This document shows positions 9,321-53,182 of a stretch of DNA of 64,000 nucleotides, piece after piece; within the stretch, counting starts at the first letter, position 1, and each line of letters opens with the position of its first letter. The stretch is from Escherichia phage vB_EcoM_EP32a. A model generated the notes under the pieces. It ran no database searches. It had not been told where the DNA came from and saw only the letters and a list, made by a program, of their open reading frames with translations. The position numbers and the translations under genes are program-made. The DNA lies in sequence record OR544954; one strand, written 5' to 3'.

Positions 9321-9623
9321 ATGAGTCTTTACACTGAACTGAATAAAAAATCTGAAGAATCTGCTGAAACTATTTTTAAAAACGTGCAAAAGCGTATTTT
9401 AGAAAAGATGTATAACGCTGCAGCTAAAGGTGAAAAATCTTGCCGGTTTCCGATTAGGTGTTCTTCCGATTTATGCGCAAATACTATTGAATGGTTGGAA
9501 AGTGAAGGTCTTACGGTAGAGAAAAACCCGGCGACTTCTATTGGCAGTGAATCATATATTAGTATTTCTTGGGATAAATCAACAAAATTAAAAATAATGA
9601 TGTACAAGCACCAAGGATGGTGA
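9321..9623 (+). CDS. hypothetical protein
   Basis: ATG after GAGGAAAA; 100 aa. Confidence 0.5.
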   Translation: MSLYTELNKKSEESAETIFKNVQKRILEKMYNAAAKGEKSCRFPIRCSSDLCANTIEWLESEGLTVEKNPATSIGSESYISISWDKSTKLKIMMYKHQGW

Positions 9624-19789: not shown

Positions 19790-19912
19790 AGACATCAAAG
19801 GCTACAAGCCGCATACCGATGATAAAATCAGTAAAGTGAACGCTATTAAAGATGCAGAAGTTCGTGTCGTGCAGTATTTCGACCTGAGGAAAAATACTAA
19901 TGGCTAGAGTAG

Positions 19913-19962
19913 TTTACTTCTCCTCTAGTTGTGTTACTATAGACCTGTCAACTAGAGGAGAA
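19913..19962 (+). promoter_or_regulatory. early promoter cassette with 12-bp inverted repeat
   Basis: GTTTACttctcctctagttgtgTTACTATagacctgtcaactagaggag; near-identical copy at 60757-60806. Confidence 0.5.
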
Positions 19963-19968
19963 ATCAAA

Positions 19969-20427
19969 ATGACTATCAATTCAGACGTTTTTATCCGTCG
20001 TAATAAACTCCGTCGAATCTTTGAAACGGAGTTCCGCAAAATAAATGCCGGTATAAAAGATGCTGCAAAGTCTCTTGGACTACCAGGCTTTCATATCAAG
20101 TATTCTCAACATCTCTTAGATCGTGCCATCCAGAGAGAAATAGATGAGAATTACGTTTTTGAATTATTTCATAAAGTAAAAAATCACGTTAAAGAAGTTG
20201 CAGAATTTTTATCAATGCCGGCACGTCCAGATGTTGATGAAGATTTTGTCGAAGGTGTCGAGTATCGTCCAGGCCGTTTAGAAATAACTGACGGAAATCT
20301 TTGGTTAGGACTTACAGTTTGTCGCGAAAATCCGACATTCAAAATGAAGACTCTTCAATGTAGAATGGCTATTATTAACAGTAAACGACTACCAGGAAAA
20401 GCTTCTAAAGCAGTGATTAAAATCTAG
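19969..20427 (+). CDS. regB: endoribonuclease RegB
   Basis: MTINSDVFIRRNKLRR...KYSQHLLDRAIQREIDE...GRLEITDGNLWLG...LQCRMAIINSKRLPGKASKAVIK; 152 aa (T4 RegB 153 aa). Confidence 0.8.
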   Translation: MTINSDVFIRRNKLRRIFETEFRKINAGIKDAAKSLGLPGFHIKYSQHLLDRAIQREIDENYVFELFHKVKNHVKEVAEFLSMPARPDVDEDFVEGVEYRPGRLEITDGNLWLGLTVCRENPTFKMKTLQCRMAIINSKRLPGKASKAVIKI

Positions 20428-22382: not shown

Positions 22383-22964
22383 ATGGCTAGTTTAATTTTT
22401 ACATATGCCGCTATGAATGCTGGTAAGTCTGCTTCATTACTTACTGCCGCACATAACTATAAAGAACGTGGCATGGGTGTATTAGTTCTTAAACCGGCTA
22501 TTGATACTCGCGATTCAAAAGGTGAAATAGTCTCTCGTATTGGTATTCGTCAGGATGCCAATATAATTACAAAAGACATGGATATCTTTGAATTCTATAA
22601 ATGGGCTGCAGCACAAAAGGATATTCACTGTGTATTTGTTGACGAAGCTCAGTTCTTAACTACTGAAAAGGTGTATCAACTTAGTCGTATTGTTGACGTA
22701 TACAATGTGCCGGTAATGGCATATGGACTACGAACAGATTTTAAAGGTAATCTATTTGAAGGTTCTCAAGCATTAATGGCTATTGCCGATAAGCTTGTTG
22801 AACTTAAAGGTGTCTGTCATTGTGGTAAAAAGGCCACAATGGTAGCTAGAGTCACGGAAGACGGACTTCCAATTACAGATGGCAGCCAAATTGAAATTGG
22901 TGATACCGATAGATATGTGTCATTATGCCGGAAGCATTGGAATGATTTGACAGGGTTGTTATAA
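22383..22964 (+). CDS. tk: thymidine kinase
   Basis: P-loop MNAGKSASLL; zinc ribbon CHCGKKAT...CRKHW; 193 aa as in T4 Tk. Confidence 0.9.
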   Translation: MASLIFTYAAMNAGKSASLLTAAHNYKERGMGVLVLKPAIDTRDSKGEIVSRIGIRQDANIITKDMDIFEFYKWAAAQKDIHCVFVDEAQFLTTEKVYQLSRIVDVYNVPVMAYGLRTDFKGNLFEGSQALMAIADKLVELKGVCHCGKKATMVARVTEDGLPITDGSQIEIGDTDRYVSLCRKHWNDLTGLL

Positions 22965-24178: not shown

Positions 24179-24358
24179 ATGACCCGTGAACAAGCTAATA
24201 AATTGATGGACCTTATCCATGACTTACGTGAAGCCGATTCAGATTTGAATGATGTAGCTTATCATGCGGTAAATGATAACGGAGACTTTTATGAAAATCA
24301 GGTTGATGCTTGCCAGAATGCTTTGGTGAATTTTGTTGAAACTTTAATTGGTGAATAA
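24179..24358 (+). CDS. small hypothetical protein (59 aa)
   Basis: ATGA-coupled to a 36-codon ORF at 24072-24182; below the track cutoff. Confidence 0.3.
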   Translation: MTREQANKLMDLIHDLREADSDLNDVAYHAVNDNGDFYENQVDACQNALVNFVETLIGE

Positions 24359-24359
24359 T

Positions 24360-24890
24360 ATGAAAACTGTAATTGAAACAACCGAGTTGTTTGGCGATTT
24401 ATGTATCGAAAAACGTGGTTATGCTTACGTTCTGACACAAGAAGATGATGCTGTTACTATTCTTCCTATGGAACTGGACAAGATTTTGAAACTCAATCCG
24501 CCCGGCCATGCATCTGTAATTAACATTGATGAAGACCTTCAAGTTCGTTTTTATCACGGTCTTTATAGTGGGGTTAATATCGAAACAGAAGATGAATGCC
24601 TTTCTATCAATAATTGGAAAACATTCGTCACTAAGGTGAAAGAATTCATAGAATCTGAAACTGCCAAAAAGGCCAAACTTCAATGGGCTAAATGCCGTAA
24701 TGCTTTTATTACAAATCAGGACCGCCCTGACTATACAACAGTCCTAGGCGTTAATCCTTCTTATGAAGACGGTGATGTCGTAGTTATTCGCCAAATTGAT
24801 GACCTTCGTCAACATATCGTTACATTAGACAAAGATGAAGCAGTTGCTCTTAAAGCTTATCTTGATTCTATTATCCCGACTTTGAAATAA
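24360..24890 (+). CDS. hypothetical protein
   Basis: 176-aa ORF, TAATATG coupling. Confidence 0.5.
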   Translation: MKTVIETTELFGDLCIEKRGYAYVLTQEDDAVTILPMELDKILKLNPPGHASVINIDEDLQVRFYHGLYSGVNIETEDECLSINNWKTFVTKVKEFIESETAKKAKLQWAKCRNAFITNQDRPDYTTVLGVNPSYEDGDVVVIRQIDDLRQHIVTLDKDEAVALKAYLDSIIPTLK

Positions 24891-28255: not shown

Positions 28256-28783
28256 ATGAACGCTAAAGATATTTTCAACCTGGTAAATTATAACGACGGT
28301 AAATTTAAATCTGAAGCACAAAGCAAGTTCTTTAATGACGTTGCTTATGGTAACGAGATTACCGTGGACGGAGGTCAGATTTTCAAATCTCGCTGGAATT
28401 GGATTGTTATCATCGATTCAGTTGGAATTGTGGAAGTCTACAAAAACACTAACAAAAAACGTACATTATTCTGGTCTCGTGAAACTAACGAGCAGTACAA
28501 AAAGGATAAAGCATCTCGTTTATCCAAAGTAACCCAGGAAGATATCGACTTCATCAAGAAAGATATCGAGATGTACGAAAATTTAATTGCTGAAGACCAG
28601 GCAGTACTCGATAAGTTTGATGAAATTAAAGCTTCTCGTGAAATCCCTGACTTCATGAAAGAAACAGTAAACGAACGATACGCTCTCACTTCAGAACGTA
28701 TTGCAAACTATACAAAACAGAAAGCAGAACGTATTAGTACTCTTCGGAAATTTGAAGAACGTTTAAAGACGGTTCACGCATAA
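28256..28783 (+). CDS. hypothetical protein
   Basis: 175-aa ORF after promoter cassette 28199-28250. Confidence 0.5.
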   Translation: MNAKDIFNLVNYNDGKFKSEAQSKFFNDVAYGNEITVDGGQIFKSRWNWIVIIDSVGIVEVYKNTNKKRTLFWSRETNEQYKKDKASRLSKVTQEDIDFIKKDIEMYENLIAEDQAVLDKFDEIKASREIPDFMKETVNERYALTSERIANYTKQKAERISTLRKFEERLKTVHA

Positions 28784-28845
28784 ACGCTTTACCCAAGGAC
28801 GGGTTATAATGGTTTTGAGTTCCAATTCAATCTGAGGAAATAGTT

Positions 28846-29841
28846 ATGAGCATTACATCTGATGCGGTAAAACATGAAATTAACGGTTTATGTGCTTCAC
28901 AGATTAAAGTGTGGTTTAAAGACCATAATGATCGCAGAGCACTTAATTATGAACGAATTGCTATCCAAGTTCATCAATTACTGGTTAGTAAATTTGATTT
29001 TCATATGCCGTCTGAAATCTATACTAATCTACCTCGAGCGCTTATTAAAGCGTGTAAAGGCTACGGAAAATCAATGGCTGATGGAATCTTCAGCGCGCTG
29101 AATAAACTTAACGTTCTGTCGATGATTAACTCTAACAACATCCTGCGTAATCTAGGACGTACTGATTTGTTCGGTCGTGAACAGTGTAAAATGCCTTTGA
29201 AATGGATTGTTGCTCATCTTAACGAGAACCAAACACGTTTTATGGCCGTAACAGCACGTTTACAAATGGGCCTAGATCGTCAGATGAACTTTAAAACTCA
29301 TCCACGTTATTCAGGTTCAACTGACTTTTATAAATGCGAGCTTCAAAAGGTTGCAGGCAAAACTGTCTTAGTAGTTCGTGTAACGTTTGAAGGACGACGT
29401 CAAGGATATTTTGACCTAATTGGCTCTGGTCTCAAACATTGTGGATTTATCGACGAAGTTGATATCAAGCGAGACGGCACTGGATACCGTATTGGATATG
29501 TTTGCACTCTTAAAGAAGAGATTTCGGGACCAGCACCAGGACTAAAAGACGTTAGATATAAAGACGAGCTAGTTGAAGAAATAAAAGAAGTTGAATATGA
29601 TATCAACCAAGAAGATGCTCTTAAAGACCTTATTGACGAACTAAACCAAGACGTTATTCCGGTTCAGAAATTTGAATCAAAACATGCTGAGCAAATCAAA
29701 TACTTTGAAGCTTTGATTAACGAACTTAATGTAACTATTCAGCAGACTGACGATGAAATCTCACGATTAGCAGGCTTAAATGGTAAAAATAAAACAGAAC
29801 GAGCTAATCTTATTCAAGTAGTAAAACTTCTTAAGGAATGA
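28846..29841 (+). CDS. hypothetical protein with C-terminal coiled coil (family member 1 of 3)
   Basis: 331 aa; globular N-terminal part plus helical C-terminus. Confidence 0.5.
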   Translation: MSITSDAVKHEINGLCASQIKVWFKDHNDRRALNYERIAIQVHQLLVSKFDFHMPSEIYTNLPRALIKACKGYGKSMADGIFSALNKLNVLSMINSNNILRNLGRTDLFGREQCKMPLKWIVAHLNENQTRFMAVTARLQMGLDRQMNFKTHPRYSGSTDFYKCELQKVAGKTVLVVRVTFEGRRQGYFDLIGSGLKHCGFIDEVDIKRDGTGYRIGYVCTLKEEISGPAPGLKDVRYKDELVEEIKEVEYDINQEDALKDLIDELNQDVIPVQKFESKHAEQIKYFEALINELNVTIQQTDDEISRLAGLNGKNKTERANLIQVVKLLKE

Positions 29842-29896
29842 TGTACAACCAAGGATGGTTGGAGTATAATAAATTTTTCAACATGAGGAATATAAA

Positions 29897-30727
29897 ATGG
29901 CTTTTATTACACGTAGAGAACTTATCAAAGAATTTACCTCTAACGCATATACTCCAGGACCTAATCCTATCCGTATGCCTGTAAAGACTCCTGAAGAGAT
30001 TGAGGAAATCTGTTCATATTATGGGATTACTTCTCGTAAGTTTACTCAATTTGAATGTGTTACTAACACACCCGTTAAAGAGTTCATTAAAAATGGCGAG
30101 TTCAGCCGTTTATTAGCCAAACAGAAACTTCGTAATTTTTGTATCGGCGGTGAAGGACAATATTTCGCTAAGCAGTTCCGAAATAACCTTAACAATCTGA
30201 TGGCCATTGCTTCTCGTATTCGTCCTCAAGCAATTAACATGAAACATTTGAAATATACTTACGATAAGTTAGAAATCATGGTTATCAGTGAGAACGAGTT
30301 CACTCTTACATATAATCCTAAGAATGATAACGTTGCTCGTGTATTCCACCAAGCACTGGAAGTTTTAGGCGATAATATCCACCAGATTAAAGCGATTTAT
30401 TCTCGTGAGCTTAATATTATTGACCCTATCAAGAATAAGGGCAATATCGCTATCCAGGCTCGTGTATCTATTGGTAAAAAGGTTCCTGCGCCATGGTGGC
30501 ACAAAGACTCTGAATACTATCAAAATCTTAAAAAGGAAAATGCATTGTTTGAAGCTCTTCTTCCGGCCGAAGATTACCATTACAATCAAATCAAGGCCAC
30601 TATGGACCAACTGTCTGTTGAACTTGACAAAGCACAAGCTAAGCTTCGTGATGCTCAACAAGTAGTTACCAATCTCCAGTTGCAGTACTCTAAACTTTTT
30701 AACGCAATGAATGCATTAAAATCATAA
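29897..30727 (+). CDS. hypothetical protein with C-terminal coiled coil (family member 2 of 3)
   Basis: 276 aa; preceded by caaccaaggatggttgGAGTATAAT cassette. Confidence 0.5.
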   Translation: MAFITRRELIKEFTSNAYTPGPNPIRMPVKTPEEIEEICSYYGITSRKFTQFECVTNTPVKEFIKNGEFSRLLAKQKLRNFCIGGEGQYFAKQFRNNLNNLMAIASRIRPQAINMKHLKYTYDKLEIMVISENEFTLTYNPKNDNVARVFHQALEVLGDNIHQIKAIYSRELNIIDPIKNKGNIAIQARVSIGKKVPAPWWHKDSEYYQNLKKENALFEALLPAEDYHYNQIKATMDQLSVELDKAQAKLRDAQQVVTNLQLQYSKLFNAMNALKS

Positions 30728-30789
30728 ATCAGTTTACAACCAAGGATGGTTGGAGTATAATGAATCTATCTTAACGAGAGGAAAATATT

Positions 30790-31740
30790 ATGACACGTTC
30801 ACATTACATTGATTATTTTGCAGGTCTTATCGCTAATGTTCATGCCCAACGTGCTTCTGGTTCATTAGGATTTGATGTTCCACACCGAGATGTAGTAAGT
30901 GGTATTCTTCGCGATTTTGGTACATATACCGGCCAAGAAAATCATATCTGTAAAGATACTCAAAATGCGTATTCTCATTCATTAGGGACACTGCTTCAAT
31001 GGTTCAAACGTTCTCGTTTATTATCTTCTACTGTAGCTCGCGATAACATTAAAAACTTTATGAAACCGAGCTTTATTAAATCTGTGACATCTAAAACCGA
31101 TTTGGTTGAATTCACTATTGTTAATGATGTTAAAAAGACTCATTTAGCTGATTGGTTATCTACCATTCCTGAAACTAAATTTGCTGATAAATTTGCTTGT
31201 GAATTCAATAACCAAGTGAATATGCTTTTTAAACATTCTCGTAAATTATTCACTGGCGGTGATGGTCGTACAAATAAAGTTCATGTTAAAGATTGGGTTA
31301 CTGCAGTATTCAAACCAACCGGTAATGGTAACGCATCATTATCAATTGATATCCAGGTTCCTTATTACTACTCATGTAATCTCGGTACCATGAAAGCCGA
31401 AGAAATTAAGAAGCACAATAAAACCGTTCGTTCGCTGTCTTATAAACTTCGCATGATGTTAAGAGTCATGGACGTGGTAGAAATGTATGATGAAACCGAA
31501 GATAATGGTTCAATGTTATACAGTTCTCGCATTCAAATTAAGTTGAAGAACCCTAACGAGTATAAGCCTAAGCCTATTAAAGAGCCTAAAGCAGAAAAAG
31601 TTGATAACTTAAGAGAAGAACGTGAGTACCTCAAATCTCGTCTGAAAGAAGTCGAAGCCCAGATTGCAGAACAAACTAAATCGTTAAAAGCTCTGAATGC
31701 GAAAGCGGACGGTTTACGAAATGCCATTGAGGTTTTATAA
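30790..31740 (+). CDS. hypothetical protein with C-terminal coiled coil (family member 3 of 3)
   Basis: 316 aa; preceded by a near-identical caaccaaggatggttgGAGTATAAT cassette. Confidence 0.5.
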   Translation: MTRSHYIDYFAGLIANVHAQRASGSLGFDVPHRDVVSGILRDFGTYTGQENHICKDTQNAYSHSLGTLLQWFKRSRLLSSTVARDNIKNFMKPSFIKSVTSKTDLVEFTIVNDVKKTHLADWLSTIPETKFADKFACEFNNQVNMLFKHSRKLFTGGDGRTNKVHVKDWVTAVFKPTGNGNASLSIDIQVPYYYSCNLGTMKAEEIKKHNKTVRSLSYKLRMMLRVMDVVEMYDETEDNGSMLYSSRIQIKLKNPNEYKPKPIKEPKAEKVDNLREEREYLKSRLKEVEAQIAEQTKSLKALNAKADGLRNAIEVL

Positions 31741-32045
31741 TGAAACTACGTCTTTTAGAGGATATTGACATGAGCACTAATCATGGCTTGGTTAAGTTTA
31801 TTGACGATAGTTCAAAGATTGAATTTGTTCAGCGAGATAAAATCCACGGTGAAGAAGAGTTCGTTCCTCCGGCATGGAACGAAATAATGAAAATGGTTGA
31901 ACGACGTGAAAATGCTGCCAAATCGGCAGCAAAACATCCATGCCCGGAATGTGGAACTATCCAAGTCCAACTGGTTAACTGGACCAGTGATAACTTGAAA
32001 TTGAAATGCCGTAAATGCTTCCACAAATTTGAGAGAACATTATAA
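31740..32045 (+). CDS. zinc-ribbon protein
   Basis: CPECG...CRKC pair; ATGA-coupled. Confidence 0.5.
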   Translation: MKLRLLEDIDMSTNHGLVKFIDDSSKIEFVQRDKIHGEEEFVPPAWNEIMKMVERRENAAKSAAKHPCPECGTIQVQLVNWTSDNLKLKCRKCFHKFERTL

Positions 32046-32458
32046 TGAGATATAGCCTTCGTTGTTTTATCGCAGCTTTAGTTTTTGCTATTATTCCATT
32101 CATTTGGAACAGCCAGAATACTTACATGGAAACTAAAGTAATTCCCGTGGAGGTAGTGGAATTAATCTCAGGCCAATCTACAGGAAAATATTCTAAATTA
32201 GAATTTATTGCAGTCTATAAAGATGAGCAAGGACGAGTTTTTGACAGGCGTATATCACCGTCGTTTTATACGCTTCTGAATAAAGGTGATACGATAGCTA
32301 TAGAAATTCGTGAGATGGATATCAAACAAACTACTAAAGATAACTTGATTTGGTTCTTTGGTACAGTGTTGTTGGTTTCTATCTGTATCACAGGTTTTAT
32401 TACATGTATTGTATTTGGCATTGCATATTTAATCGATGAAAGGAAAAATAATGTTTAA
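32045..32458 (+). CDS. membrane protein
   Basis: N-terminal and C-terminal TM segments. Confidence 0.45.
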   Translation: MRYSLRCFIAALVFAIIPFIWNSQNTYMETKVIPVEVVELISGQSTGKYSKLEFIAVYKDEQGRVFDRRISPSFYTLLNKGDTIAIEIREMDIKQTTKDNLIWFFGTVLLVSICITGFITCIVFGIAYLIDERKNNV

Positions 32459-32714
32459 AGTGTACGGGTATGACTCTACTATTCATAAATGCATTTATTG
32501 CGATAATGCGAAACGATTGCTGACTGTTAAGAAACAGCCGTTCGAATTCATTAATGTTATGCCAGAAAAAGGTGTTTTTGATGATGAGAAAATTGCTGAG
32601 CTTCTGACTAAGCTCGGGCGTGAAACAAAAGTCGGATTGACAATGCCACAGGTATTTGCTCCTGATGGAACTTTGATCGGCGGATTTGACCAACTGCGAG
32701 AATATTTTAAATGA
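32451..32714 (+). CDS. nrdC: glutaredoxin NrdC
   Basis: MFKVYGYDSTIHKCIYCDNAKRLL... matches T4 NrdC; CxYC active site; 87 aa. Confidence 0.9.
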   Translation: MFKVYGYDSTIHKCIYCDNAKRLLTVKKQPFEFINVMPEKGVFDDEKIAELLTKLGRETKVGLTMPQVFAPDGTLIGGFDQLREYFK

Positions 32715-47477: not shown

Positions 47478-47846
47478 ATGATTGAAATTAAATTGAAGAA
47501 CCCCGAAGATTTTCTTAAAGTCAAAGAGACTCTGACCCGTATGGGCATCGCTAATAACAAGGATAAAGTTCTTTATCAGTCCTGTCATATCCTCCAAAAG
47601 CAAGGTAAATATTACATCGTCCACTTTAAAGAAATGTTGCGTATGGACGGGCGTCAAGTTGATATTGATGGTGAAGACTACCAACGACGTGATTCGATTG
47701 CCCAGTTGCTTGAAGACTGGGGATTGATTGTTATTGAAGACTCTGCTCGTGAAGATCTGTTTGGCCTAACTAATAACTTCCGTGTTATCTCTTTTAAACA
47801 GAAAGATGACTGGACTTTGAAAGCAAAATATACAATTGGTAATTAA
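47478..47846 (+). CDS. regA: translational repressor RegA
   Basis: MIEIKLKNPEDFLKVKETLTRMGIANNKDKVLYQSCHILQKQGKYYIVHFKEMLRMDGRQV matches T4 RegA; 122 aa. Confidence 0.9.
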   Translation: MIEIKLKNPEDFLKVKETLTRMGIANNKDKVLYQSCHILQKQGKYYIVHFKEMLRMDGRQVDIDGEDYQRRDSIAQLLEDWGLIVIEDSAREDLFGLTNNFRVISFKQKDDWTLKAKYTIGN

Positions 47847-51496: not shown

Positions 51497-53182
51497 ATGA
51501 AAAAAGCTGTTATTCTTGGTGCTGGACTGGCAACTCGTTTGTATCCAATAACGCATCATATTCCTAAGGTGCTTGTTAACTATAAACAAGACACTATTCT
51601 GAGCAATTTGTATACAATTTATTCTGACCTTGGCGCAGATGAAATTATTGTAGTAGTTCATTCAAAATTTGCTGAAACCGTTCGAGCTTATTGTGAGCAA
51701 GAAGGGTTCAATGTGACTATTCGTACAGTTGATGAAGCGTATGGTTCTGCTTATGCTCTTGCTAAATTATACAAAGATTTAGATGGCCATAACGTAATTG
51801 TTAACTGGTGTGATATTATTCCTGATTTTGGTTCATGGTCTTGGAATGTTAACGCAATCTATGTTAAGGGTGATGAATGTCGATATAATTTCGACGGTGA
51901 AAATATCACTAACGTAGGTTCAACGGGTGGTAATGTTGTAGGAATTTACCAGTTCAAAGACTGGGAATTCTATATGGGTTCTACTGATGAGGAAATTCAT
52001 GAATACTGCAAAGGACGTGATTTCGTAGAATTCCTTTACGGGAGTGCATTCAATAAATCAGAGCTTATGAATCTAATTGATTTAGGTGATATGCCTAAAC
52101 TTGAAAAAGCTCATGAAGTTCGTGAACTTAATCGTAGTTTTAATGCAGTTGAAATTGGTGAAGAAACTGTAACTAAATTCGCATTAACCGAACAGGGTCG
52201 AGCTCTTCAGAAAGATGAGATTTCATGGTATCTTAAAGTGAAATCAGATTCAGTTCCTCAGTTAGTTTCTGTTAATGAAAATAACTTTGAAATGGAACGC
52301 ATTAAAGGTAAGCCGGCATTTGAATATATTAAATCCAAATCAAGTCTTGCTCGTCCACAAATTGTTGATGCAATTTTAGATGCACTGAAATTCAGCACAG
52401 ACACTTATTTTGTAAGTCCTGAAACTGTTCGTCGTGATTTCACTAAAGAATTCTATACGAAAGTTATTGATCGTTGTGAAAGCATTCAGCCATTGATTGA
52501 TTCATTTGGTAAAATCACACATGTGAACTACACTAAGATTGGACGTCTGAAGCCAATGCTGAAACAAGCTTTAGAACACCTTATTCGTTATCATAACCGT
52601 TCTCAGGGACAGTACTCTGTTATTCACGGTGACCCGAACTTCAGTAATACTATGATTACTGATAATGGCGAAGTCAAGTTTATCGACCCTCGTGGATATT
52701 TTGGTGAAACCAAGATTTACGGGCCAAAATTGTATGACGAAGCTAAAGTGCTTTATGCTGTTTCAGGTTATGATGAATTCAATGCTAATCCAACCTGGGG
52801 ACAGTTTACTATTGATGAAACAACTTGTAATGTGACTATTAACATCAATCCATTAGTTTACAAATATGGAAAGATGAGTTCGTTTAACGAGTATCATCAT
52901 TTGGCAGTGGCAATTATCTGGATTGCATTAGGTGGTTATTTCAAGAATAATCCACTTAAAGCGGTAGCCGCATATTATAAAGGTATGGAACTTCTGACTA
53001 AGCAATTACGTAACATGGGCCGTGTACTTCAGGACGGCTCTATTAGTTATGACGTAGCAGAACCTGTAACGGCTACTCTGATTACAAAAAATCCTGGTAA
53101 ATGGGTACTAACTGATAAAGAAACTGGTGTTTCCTATCGTCCAATCGGTGGCGATATCACTCATCAATGGGAACGAATCTAA
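51497..53182 (+). CDS. bifunctional sugar-1-phosphate nucleotidyltransferase (N-terminal) / APH-ChoK-fold kinase (C-terminal)
   Basis: N-terminus AVILGAGLATRLYPITHHIPKVLV (G-x-G-x-x-R, LicC/MurU-like); C-terminus VIHGDPNFSNTMITDNGEVKFIDPRG (HGDxxxxN catalytic loop plus D of the APH/choline-kinase fold); 561 aa. Confidence 0.75.
   Translation: MKKAVILGAGLATRLYPITHHIPKVLVNYKQDTILSNLYTIYSDLGADEIIVVVHSKFAETVRAYCEQEGFNVTIRTVDEAYGSAYALAKLYKDLDGHNVIVNWCDIIPDFGSWSWNVNAIYVKGDECRYNFDGENITNVGSTGGNVVGIYQFKDWEFYMGSTDEEIHEYCKGRDFVEFLYGSAFNKSELMNLIDLGDMPKLEKAHEVRELNRSFNAVEIGEETVTKFALTEQGRALQKDEISWYLKVKSDSVPQLVSVNENNFEMERIKGKPAFEYIKSKSSLARPQIVDAILDALKFSTDTYFVSPETVRRDFTKEFYTKVIDRCESIQPLIDSFGKITHVNYTKIGRLKPMLKQALEHLIRYHNRSQGQYSVIHGDPNFSNTMITDNGEVKFIDPRGYFGETKIYGPKLYDEAKVLYAVSGYDEFNANPTWGQFTIDETTCNVTININPLVYKYGKMSSFNEYHHLAVAIIWIALGGYFKNNPLKAVAAYYKGMELLTKQLRNMGRVLQDGSISYDVAEPVTATLITKNPGKWVLTDKETGVSYRPIGGDITHQWERI

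Follow-up and report, generated by a model that had tools for sequence, protein, structure and literature searches.

Three adjacent tk-nrdC genes of Escherichia phage vB_EcoM_EP32a as probable ancient paralogs related to the T4 anti-Dsr1 protein NrdC.5

The tk-nrdC region of T4-like phages is non-essential and, according to experiments with T4 and T6, rich in counter-defence genes. An evolved T4 clone without nrdC.5 grows on MG1655 but is restricted on ECOR17 and, likewise, on MG1655 into which the SIR2-type ECOR17 defence gene dsr1 has been cloned, and T4 nrdC.5 supplied from a plasmid restores plating of the deletion clone on dsr1-carrying cells (Srikant et al., eLife 2022, PMC9391042). Inhibitors of other systems have also been described, with gp49.2 acting on OLD (PMC13096335) and NrdC.1 on Septu (bioRxiv 10.1101/2025.11.20.689424), and T4-type phages carry promoter-early stem-loop (PeSL) modules (Arbiol et al. 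2010, PMC2839356; Comeau et al. 2014, PMC4122927). Here we consider three consecutive genes, named A, B and C in the 5'-3' order of their open reading frames (ORFs), in a stretch of 64,000 nt from Escherichia phage vB_EcoM_EP32a (record OR544954). This stretch, referred to below as the window, shows ~97 % identity to numerous RB69-like coliphages, vB_Eco_F31 (Mosigvirus) among them. The three genes add to known T-even families, most of them uncharacterised, and the sole gene of the set with a known role is T4 NrdC.5, against Dsr1. What is new here is the evidence for a single superfamily, its connection with a counter-defence protein already on record, and a covarying promoter hairpin.

A preliminary description, made from the sequence alone, had placed three consecutive ORFs in the tk-nrdC region, and this placement holds, since all three lie on the plus strand with the expected lengths and are flanked by tk and nrdC as in the T4-type region (Table 1). 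Each gene falls into an established family and an established position. Gene A occupies the NrdC.6-type slot, after nrdC.8, and matches T4 NrdC.6 significantly over its full length (30 % identity, E 2e-18), members from Gaprivervirus and Dhakavirus (E 2e-27) and PHROG 2257 (2e-127; function not annotated). Gene B belongs to the NrdC.5 family and to its slot, the T4 nrdC.5 position between the nrdC.6-type and the nrdC.4/3-type genes; it is 23 % identical to T4 NrdC.5 (E 9e-10) and scores 344.5 bits against PF23882 (cut-off 30, E 7.9e-103). Gene C, in the slot before nrdC.2, is 56 % identical to T4 NrdC.3 (E 1e-119), matches PHROG 1435 (2e-105; likewise of no annotated function) and weakly resembles T4 NrdC.4 (E 5e-5). 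The order NrdC.8, NrdC.6-type, NrdC.5-type, NrdC.4/3-type, NrdC.2 recurs in T4, QL01, WG01, VR26 and P8, and the trio is syntenic across Tequatro-, Mosig-, Dhaka- and Gaprivervirus. In Dhakavirus QL01 and WG01, Gaprivervirus VR26 and Yersinia phage P8 a 71-aa ORF stands between the NrdC.6-type and NrdC.5-type genes and the third slot is NrdC.4-type, while the loci of Gaprivervirus ECML-359 and TH54 hold the same three families by ORF-level matches. Since each slot has its own orthologue in other genera and the paralogs A, B and C are below 20 % identical to one another, the split predates the T-even genera, and each gene is, as judged from these comparisons, an old orthologous lineage and not a recent copy.

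Profile comparisons suggest that A, B and C are paralogs of ancient origin. When the alignments contained few and nearly identical sequences, hhalign gave significance to the pairing of C and NrdC.4 alone (85.5 % for an early thin C-family profile, T4 NrdC.3 included, against T4 NrdC.4), and the signal of paralogy arose only after orthologues from other genera had been added, the profiles then spanning four genera. The B and C families align at 95.3 % (E 2.3e-8) over 246 columns and at full length, beginning at a common N-terminal MTRxEYI/ITRRELI; larger alignments gave 94 % in local and 96.7 % in global mode, with E values ranging from 1e-7 to 5e-10. On these alignments the homology of B and C extends along the whole protein. 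Between the A and C families hhalign gives 70.5 % (E 3.9e-5, 210 columns), and between the A family and a merged B+C profile 89.3 % in local mode (E 2.1e-6, score 50.8, residues 73-190 of A) and 93.2 % in global mode (E 4.4e-8). Similarly, when the merged B+C model was run against 657 local ORFs, the top non-member matches (12/12) were A-family proteins. Two motifs recur in every family in a constant order, (L/I)Sxxx(A/N)xxxLxN(F/Y) followed by FxxNxxxx(L/M)Axx(A/S)R(L/I), and all finish in ...LxxAxxxLK at the extreme C-terminus. Profile alignment and structure prediction, the approach proposed in the preliminary description, thus make a relationship detectable for B with C, for A with C and for A with the merged profile, together with a matching order of structural elements, while A with B alone stays below significance. 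Of the paralogous expansion claimed there, the paralogy is supported (94-97 % for B-C, 89-93 % for A-(B+C)); the synteny and the identities below 20 % argue against a recent local duplication.

The three proteins also resemble each other in layout. In all three the heptad score is highest over the final ~50 residues, and AlphaFold models of A and C place a low-confidence linker before a terminal helix, with an N-terminal part that is helical plus beta-alpha-beta. A C-terminal coiled coil is therefore predicted for all three, with a putative role in oligomerisation. The globular N-terminal part followed by a heptad-rich helical C-terminus, reported earlier, is thus borne out by the heptad peaks in all three proteins and the modelled terminal helices of A and C; the wider statement of a same layout agrees with the heptad scores and the models but finds no echo in direct pairwise comparison. 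The gene A model, built from A-family sequences alone with no B or C sequence, has a mean pLDDT of 69.7 (80-91 for residues 1-145) and runs through seven helices, beta-beta, alpha, beta-beta, a disordered linker at 225-277 (pLDDT below 50) and the terminal helix; the order of elements in the gene C model matches it. Foldseek of A against BFVD places NrdC.6-type proteins on top, followed by uncharacterised 300-335-aa proteins (E 6e-8 to 1e-5) from T4-like phages that infect Enterobacter, Acinetobacter, Pectobacterium and Klebsiella, and also retrieves the NrdC.3 homologue A0A449C4K0 (E 1.4e-3, probability 0.98). The same search with C returned the NrdC.3 homologue as its only match of note, with several weaker matches common to the A search. 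One match, E5EPQ6 (325 aa, Acj9), appears from its protein length to be Acj9p122, which is encoded between nrdC.10 and gene 49 in Acinetobacter phage Acj9 (36836-37813, locus L025); as a single sequence Acj9p122 was undetectable by hhalign. From this position the fold family seems to extend beyond the T-even genera while keeping a similar neighbourhood.

Other searches stayed close to the starting proteins. A word-indexed protein search returned 4 proteins for A, 33 for C and 23 for a mixed alignment, nearly all of them close relatives, and with the mixed alignment the T4 proteins themselves were missed. A related-locus search found 2 loci with a single protein and T-even phages only with the A-family alignment. 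Whole-library HMMER with the A family gave 6 proteins, all belonging to that family, all of them from phages and none cellular, and no cellular homologue of the family as a whole was found. PDB sequence searches gave no match, and no solved structure was found.

We lean, with some reserve, towards the view that A, B and C form an anciently diverged superfamily, confined to T4-like phages, of accessory counter-defence or host-range factors. The shared build would comprise a helical N-terminal domain with the two motifs and a small beta-beta(-beta)-alpha-beta-beta subdomain, followed by a hypervariable, probably disordered linker and an amphipathic helix of ~45 residues that ends the protein. 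The trio would neutralise bacterial immune proteins as accessory host-range factors, the variable N-terminal part recognising a particular defence protein and the C-terminal helix driving oligomerisation or docking. Gene B would be the counterpart of the Dsr1-countering T4 NrdC.5, and A and C would do the equivalent against other systems. In support, the trio is only 23-56 % identical between EP32a and T4, next to 78-91 % for the flanking NrdC.8, NrdC.10 and NrdC, and such divergence beside conserved flanks fits an arms-race gene set.

Several results weigh against this view. Pairwise BLASTP among A, B and C gave no signal (E >= 0.23), the A and B families alone were not significant in hhalign (E 0.04-0.1), and the A-family model alone retrieved no B or C member in HMMER. 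The membership of gene A consequently rests on its link through C and on the merged profile. The AlphaFold model of gene C is poor (pLDDT 51.9), so that the structural comparison rests on the order of elements and on Foldseek matches with TM-scores of 0.25-0.54. No functional data for NrdC.3, NrdC.4 or NrdC.6 were found in the literature. Finally, anti-Dsr1 activity cannot be assumed for gene B, given its 23 % identity to T4 NrdC.5 and the missing linker, and the Dsr1 specificity may not be shared.

It is possible, though we think it unlikely, that the paralogs serve host takeover or regulation instead, acting on host transcription, replication or membrane machinery, and that the effect of NrdC.5 on Dsr1 is indirect. 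Early promoters, a neighbourhood with an NrdC.10-like AAA ATPase and the putative transcription factor T4_y05I, and the lack of an established mechanism of NrdC.5 against Dsr1 would all suit such a role. However, loss of nrdC.5 in T4 is harmless on MG1655 and restrictive on ECOR17 or with cloned dsr1 (PMC9391042), and extreme divergence beside conserved neighbours, together with a hypervariable linker, is more typical of arms-race genes.

Less probable still is that the layout arose by convergence from unrelated ancestors, in gene A if not in all three, and that the weak profile match reflects helical composition. The A-B comparison, the missing HMMER cross-match from A and the modest TM-scores point in that direction. 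However, the alignment of A with B+C lies in residues 73-190, outside the coiled coil, and its score of 50.8 exceeds 120/120 shuffles of the A alignment, block shuffles that keep local composition included (maximum 26.2 in 60 column shuffles and 32.7 in 60 block shuffles). Moreover, the two motifs keep their order in every family, the A and C models match independently in element order, and an NrdC.3 homologue is retrieved by fold.

If A, B and C are one family, a further 3-4 genes per T-even phage become candidates for counter-defence or host range, as do the relatives in Acinetobacter, Klebsiella and Pectobacterium phages. Specificity would then be sought in the variable N-terminal part and the linker, and a common function in the C-terminal helix, which would be relevant to the choice or engineering of therapeutic T4-like phages. 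A more tentative proposal, which we put forward as speculation, is that the NrdC.3/4/5/6 superfamily might be a modular counter-defence platform of T4-like phages of Escherichia, Yersinia, Acinetobacter, Klebsiella and Pectobacterium. In this picture a fast-evolving recognition surface would sit on a constant coiled coil and core motifs, each paralog would disarm another immune system, with Dsr1 as the first known target, and promoter-hairpin cassettes would let paralogs swap between phages.

The cassettes were one of the features from which the preliminary description had argued for an expansion. It reported near-identical elements before two genes, and these are confirmed before B and C: the 25-mer CAACCAAGGATGGTTGGAGTATAAT has exactly 2 copies in the 64 kb (29846 and 30737; none expected from 100 shuffles), 27-51 nt upstream of the B and C start codons, and the identity spans 27 nt. 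A GAGG-type Shine-Dalgarno sequence lies downstream of each cassette, ahead of the B and C ATG. As pointers to duplicated coding sequences, however, the cassettes do not serve. From their hexamers and spacing they are T4-type early promoters, that is, a promoter module, and the orthologue of this module precedes the NrdC.4/3-type gene in four genera; an orthologous third-slot promoter with the CCAAGGATGG spacer is found in T4, QL01, VR26, P8 and ECML-359. The cassette before B is not at that position in Dhakavirus and Gaprivervirus, where the 71-aa ORF precedes the NrdC.5-type gene, and yet it is identical to that of C, which suggests transfer of a promoter module and not duplication of a gene. 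A recent tandem duplication within the phage lineage, spread by the repeated cassette, is thus very improbable: the identical 27-nt cassette, the adjacency and similar size and layout of the genes, and a recombinant between NrdC.5 and NrdC.3 would favour it, but the paralogs are too divergent, each is closer to its slot orthologues in four genera than to its neighbours, and the promoter alone seems to have been copied before B.

Ahead of gene A a degraded relative of the motif, ACGCTTTACCCAAGGACGGGTTATAAT, is present. The site ACGCTTTA-N13-TATAAT at this position resembles, by the published T4 consensus, a MotA-type middle promoter more than an early one, and in T4, QL01 and VR26 the nrdC.8 gene is followed by the same arrangement. 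A sigma-70 early promoter before A was considered and rejected, the spacer from TTTACC to TATAAT being just 11 nt. With an early-promoter match for each of B and C and a middle-promoter-like site for A, each gene probably has its own promoter. The spacer hairpin, NNCCA-AGGA-TGGNN, covaries in its outer pairs among nine distinct copies (90.7 % paired), with a covariation score of 0.62 against 0.15 in shuffles (0/500) and <=0.12 with the pairing partner shifted along. The hairpin has a short stem, an invariant AGGA loop and an invariant closing CCA/TGG. Copies occur in the window at 29846-29861, 30737-30752, 9609-9622 and 28791-28804, and also in T4 (locus L001) and at loci L005 and L009. Several copies have GGAG, the motif cleaved by RegB, immediately after the stem. 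An intrinsic terminator was rejected, as the folding energy does not surpass that of shuffles (z -0.3 to -0.6) and the hairpin lacks a U-tract after it.

Several observations concern single genes of the trio. Relatives of gene A differ by a 7-aa indel, and the intact NrdC.6-type form in other T-even phages has 281-295 aa. Gene B is without the hypervariable linker (site at ~residues 219-222, window 30550-30560), which measures 34-46 aa in nearly all Mosigvirus relatives (310-319 aa against 276 aa), and its PF23882 match is split in two stretches by this deletion. Only 2 phage records are at least 95 % identical to gene B, and at least one of them is also the short form. Gene C-type sequences show signs of decay in some phages: in ACG-C40 (NC_019399) the last 46 codons of a C-type gene are all that remains (47515-47652), and in one IMG/VR genome an NrdC.4-type gene is broken into two ORFs of 193 and 158 aa (locus L013, 6950-7980). 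A protein from metagenomic and phage contigs of ~167 kb (P0037) is a natural chimera of T4-type NrdC.5 residues 146-272 and NrdC.3-type residues 141-316, which points to a deletion between paralogs that removed nrdC.4.

The neighbourhood of the trio is collected in Table 1. Directly upstream lies an NrdC.8-like protein of 175 aa (28256-28783) whose C-terminal tail is also helical and charged. It is the top non-family match of the A-family model, without significance (E 0.09-0.4), and might be a shorter relative of the trio or reflect composition alone. Downstream, the end of gene C at 31740 overlaps the start of an nrdC.2-like gene, and between this gene and nrdC lies an NrdC.7-like membrane protein (32045-32458, 42 % identical to T4 NrdC.7), the T4 counterpart of which stands between nrdC.8 and nrdC.6. 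The AAA ATPase already mentioned is also among the neighbours. No homologue of NrdC.1, the T4 anti-Septu gene, was seen among the window ORFs compared with T4, and scans with PADLOC and NCBIfam gave no meaningful match.

Table 1. Features of the trio, its promoters and its surroundings in the window (positions in nt; residues refer to the respective protein).
Feature	Position	Strand	Basis or remarks
Gene A, 331 aa, NrdC.6-type	28846..29841	+	ORF; PHROG 2257; close homologues carry PF26899
Gene A core motifs LSxxNxxxILRN ... NQxRxxAxxARL, residues 82-139	29089..29262	+	Best local hhalign region against B and C families; invariant columns in A-family alignment
Gene A C-terminal amphipathic helix (predicted), residues 281-330, ending LLKE	29686..29835	+	AlphaFold helices 281-308, 313-330; heptad peak 281-308; conserved family-wide
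Gene B, 276 aa, NrdC.5-type	29897..30727	+	ORF; Pfam DUF7235 (PF23882)
Gene B core motifs FSRLLAKQKLRNF ... FRNNLNNLMAIASRI, residues 61-108	30077..30220	+	Aligned with A and C motifs
Gene B C-terminal heptad helix (predicted), ~residues 224-276, ending ALKS	30566..30724	+	Heptad score 0.95 at 228-255; tail conserved in family
Gene C, 316 aa, NrdC.3-type	30790..31740	+	ORF; PHROG 1435; homologues carry PF26897
Gene C core motifs SRLLSSTVARDNIKNF ... FACEFNNQVNMLFKHSRKL, residues 72-153	31003..31248	+	hhalign B-C alignment
Gene C C-terminal helix (predicted), residues 275-315, ending IEVL	31612..31734	+	AlphaFold helix 275-315; heptad score 0.88
Predicted early-promoter cassette before B, TGTACA-N17-TATAAT	29842..29870	+	10/12 promoter positions; spacer hairpin CAACCA-AGGA-TGGTTG, 29846-29861
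Predicted early-promoter cassette before C, TTTACA-N17-TATAAT	30733..30761	+	11/12, best in region; spacer and hairpin identical, 30737-30752
Shorter cassette relative before A, ACGCTTTA-N13-TATAAT	28784..28810	+	Hairpin ACCC-AAGGAC-GGGT, 28791-28804
RegB	19900-20427		Encoded in window
tk	22383-22964		PF00265
rI antiholin	23217		
Putative transcription factor (T4_y05I)	24348-24890		
nrdC (glutaredoxin)	32436-32714		
Endonuclease VII	33853		

Compared with T4, which has four members of the set (both NrdC.3 and NrdC.4), EP32a has three, the third slot being NrdC.3-type. Genes A and C are orthologues of T4 NrdC.6 and NrdC.3, and NrdC.4 is a paralog of C; position and layout are alike. Gene A keeps the C-terminal helix that is lost from the frameshifted nrdC.6 of the T4 reference (NC_000866). 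In that record the codons for the helix ISIQQYDDEIFRLSGLSSKAKSEREKLIKIVDLLKS persist in a different frame, across the annotated 3' end of nrdC.6 and the 'intergenic' DNA before nrdC.5 (~51996-52140). T4 NrdC.5 and gene B have in common their motifs, their slot and a C-terminal helix ending ..NALNAL(K/N), but differ in most of their residues, and gene B departs from most Mosigvirus relatives in its linker. Like gp49.2 (anti-OLD) and NrdC.1 (anti-Septu), the trio belongs to the same non-essential early neighbourhood and to small phage-only families without known domains; those two proteins, however, are far smaller (~80-106 aa) and unrelated in sequence to the trio. The cassettes before B and C resemble PeSL modules in being short conserved intergenic modules of the hyperplastic region that recur between variable genes, and in combining a TTTACW-N17-TAYWAT early promoter with a stem-loop, a Shine-Dalgarno sequence and a start codon. 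They differ from the PeSL modules in that the published stem-loop lies just upstream of the promoter, whereas in EP32a the -35 and -10 hexamers enclose the hairpin, which has a short stem of unremarkable stability.

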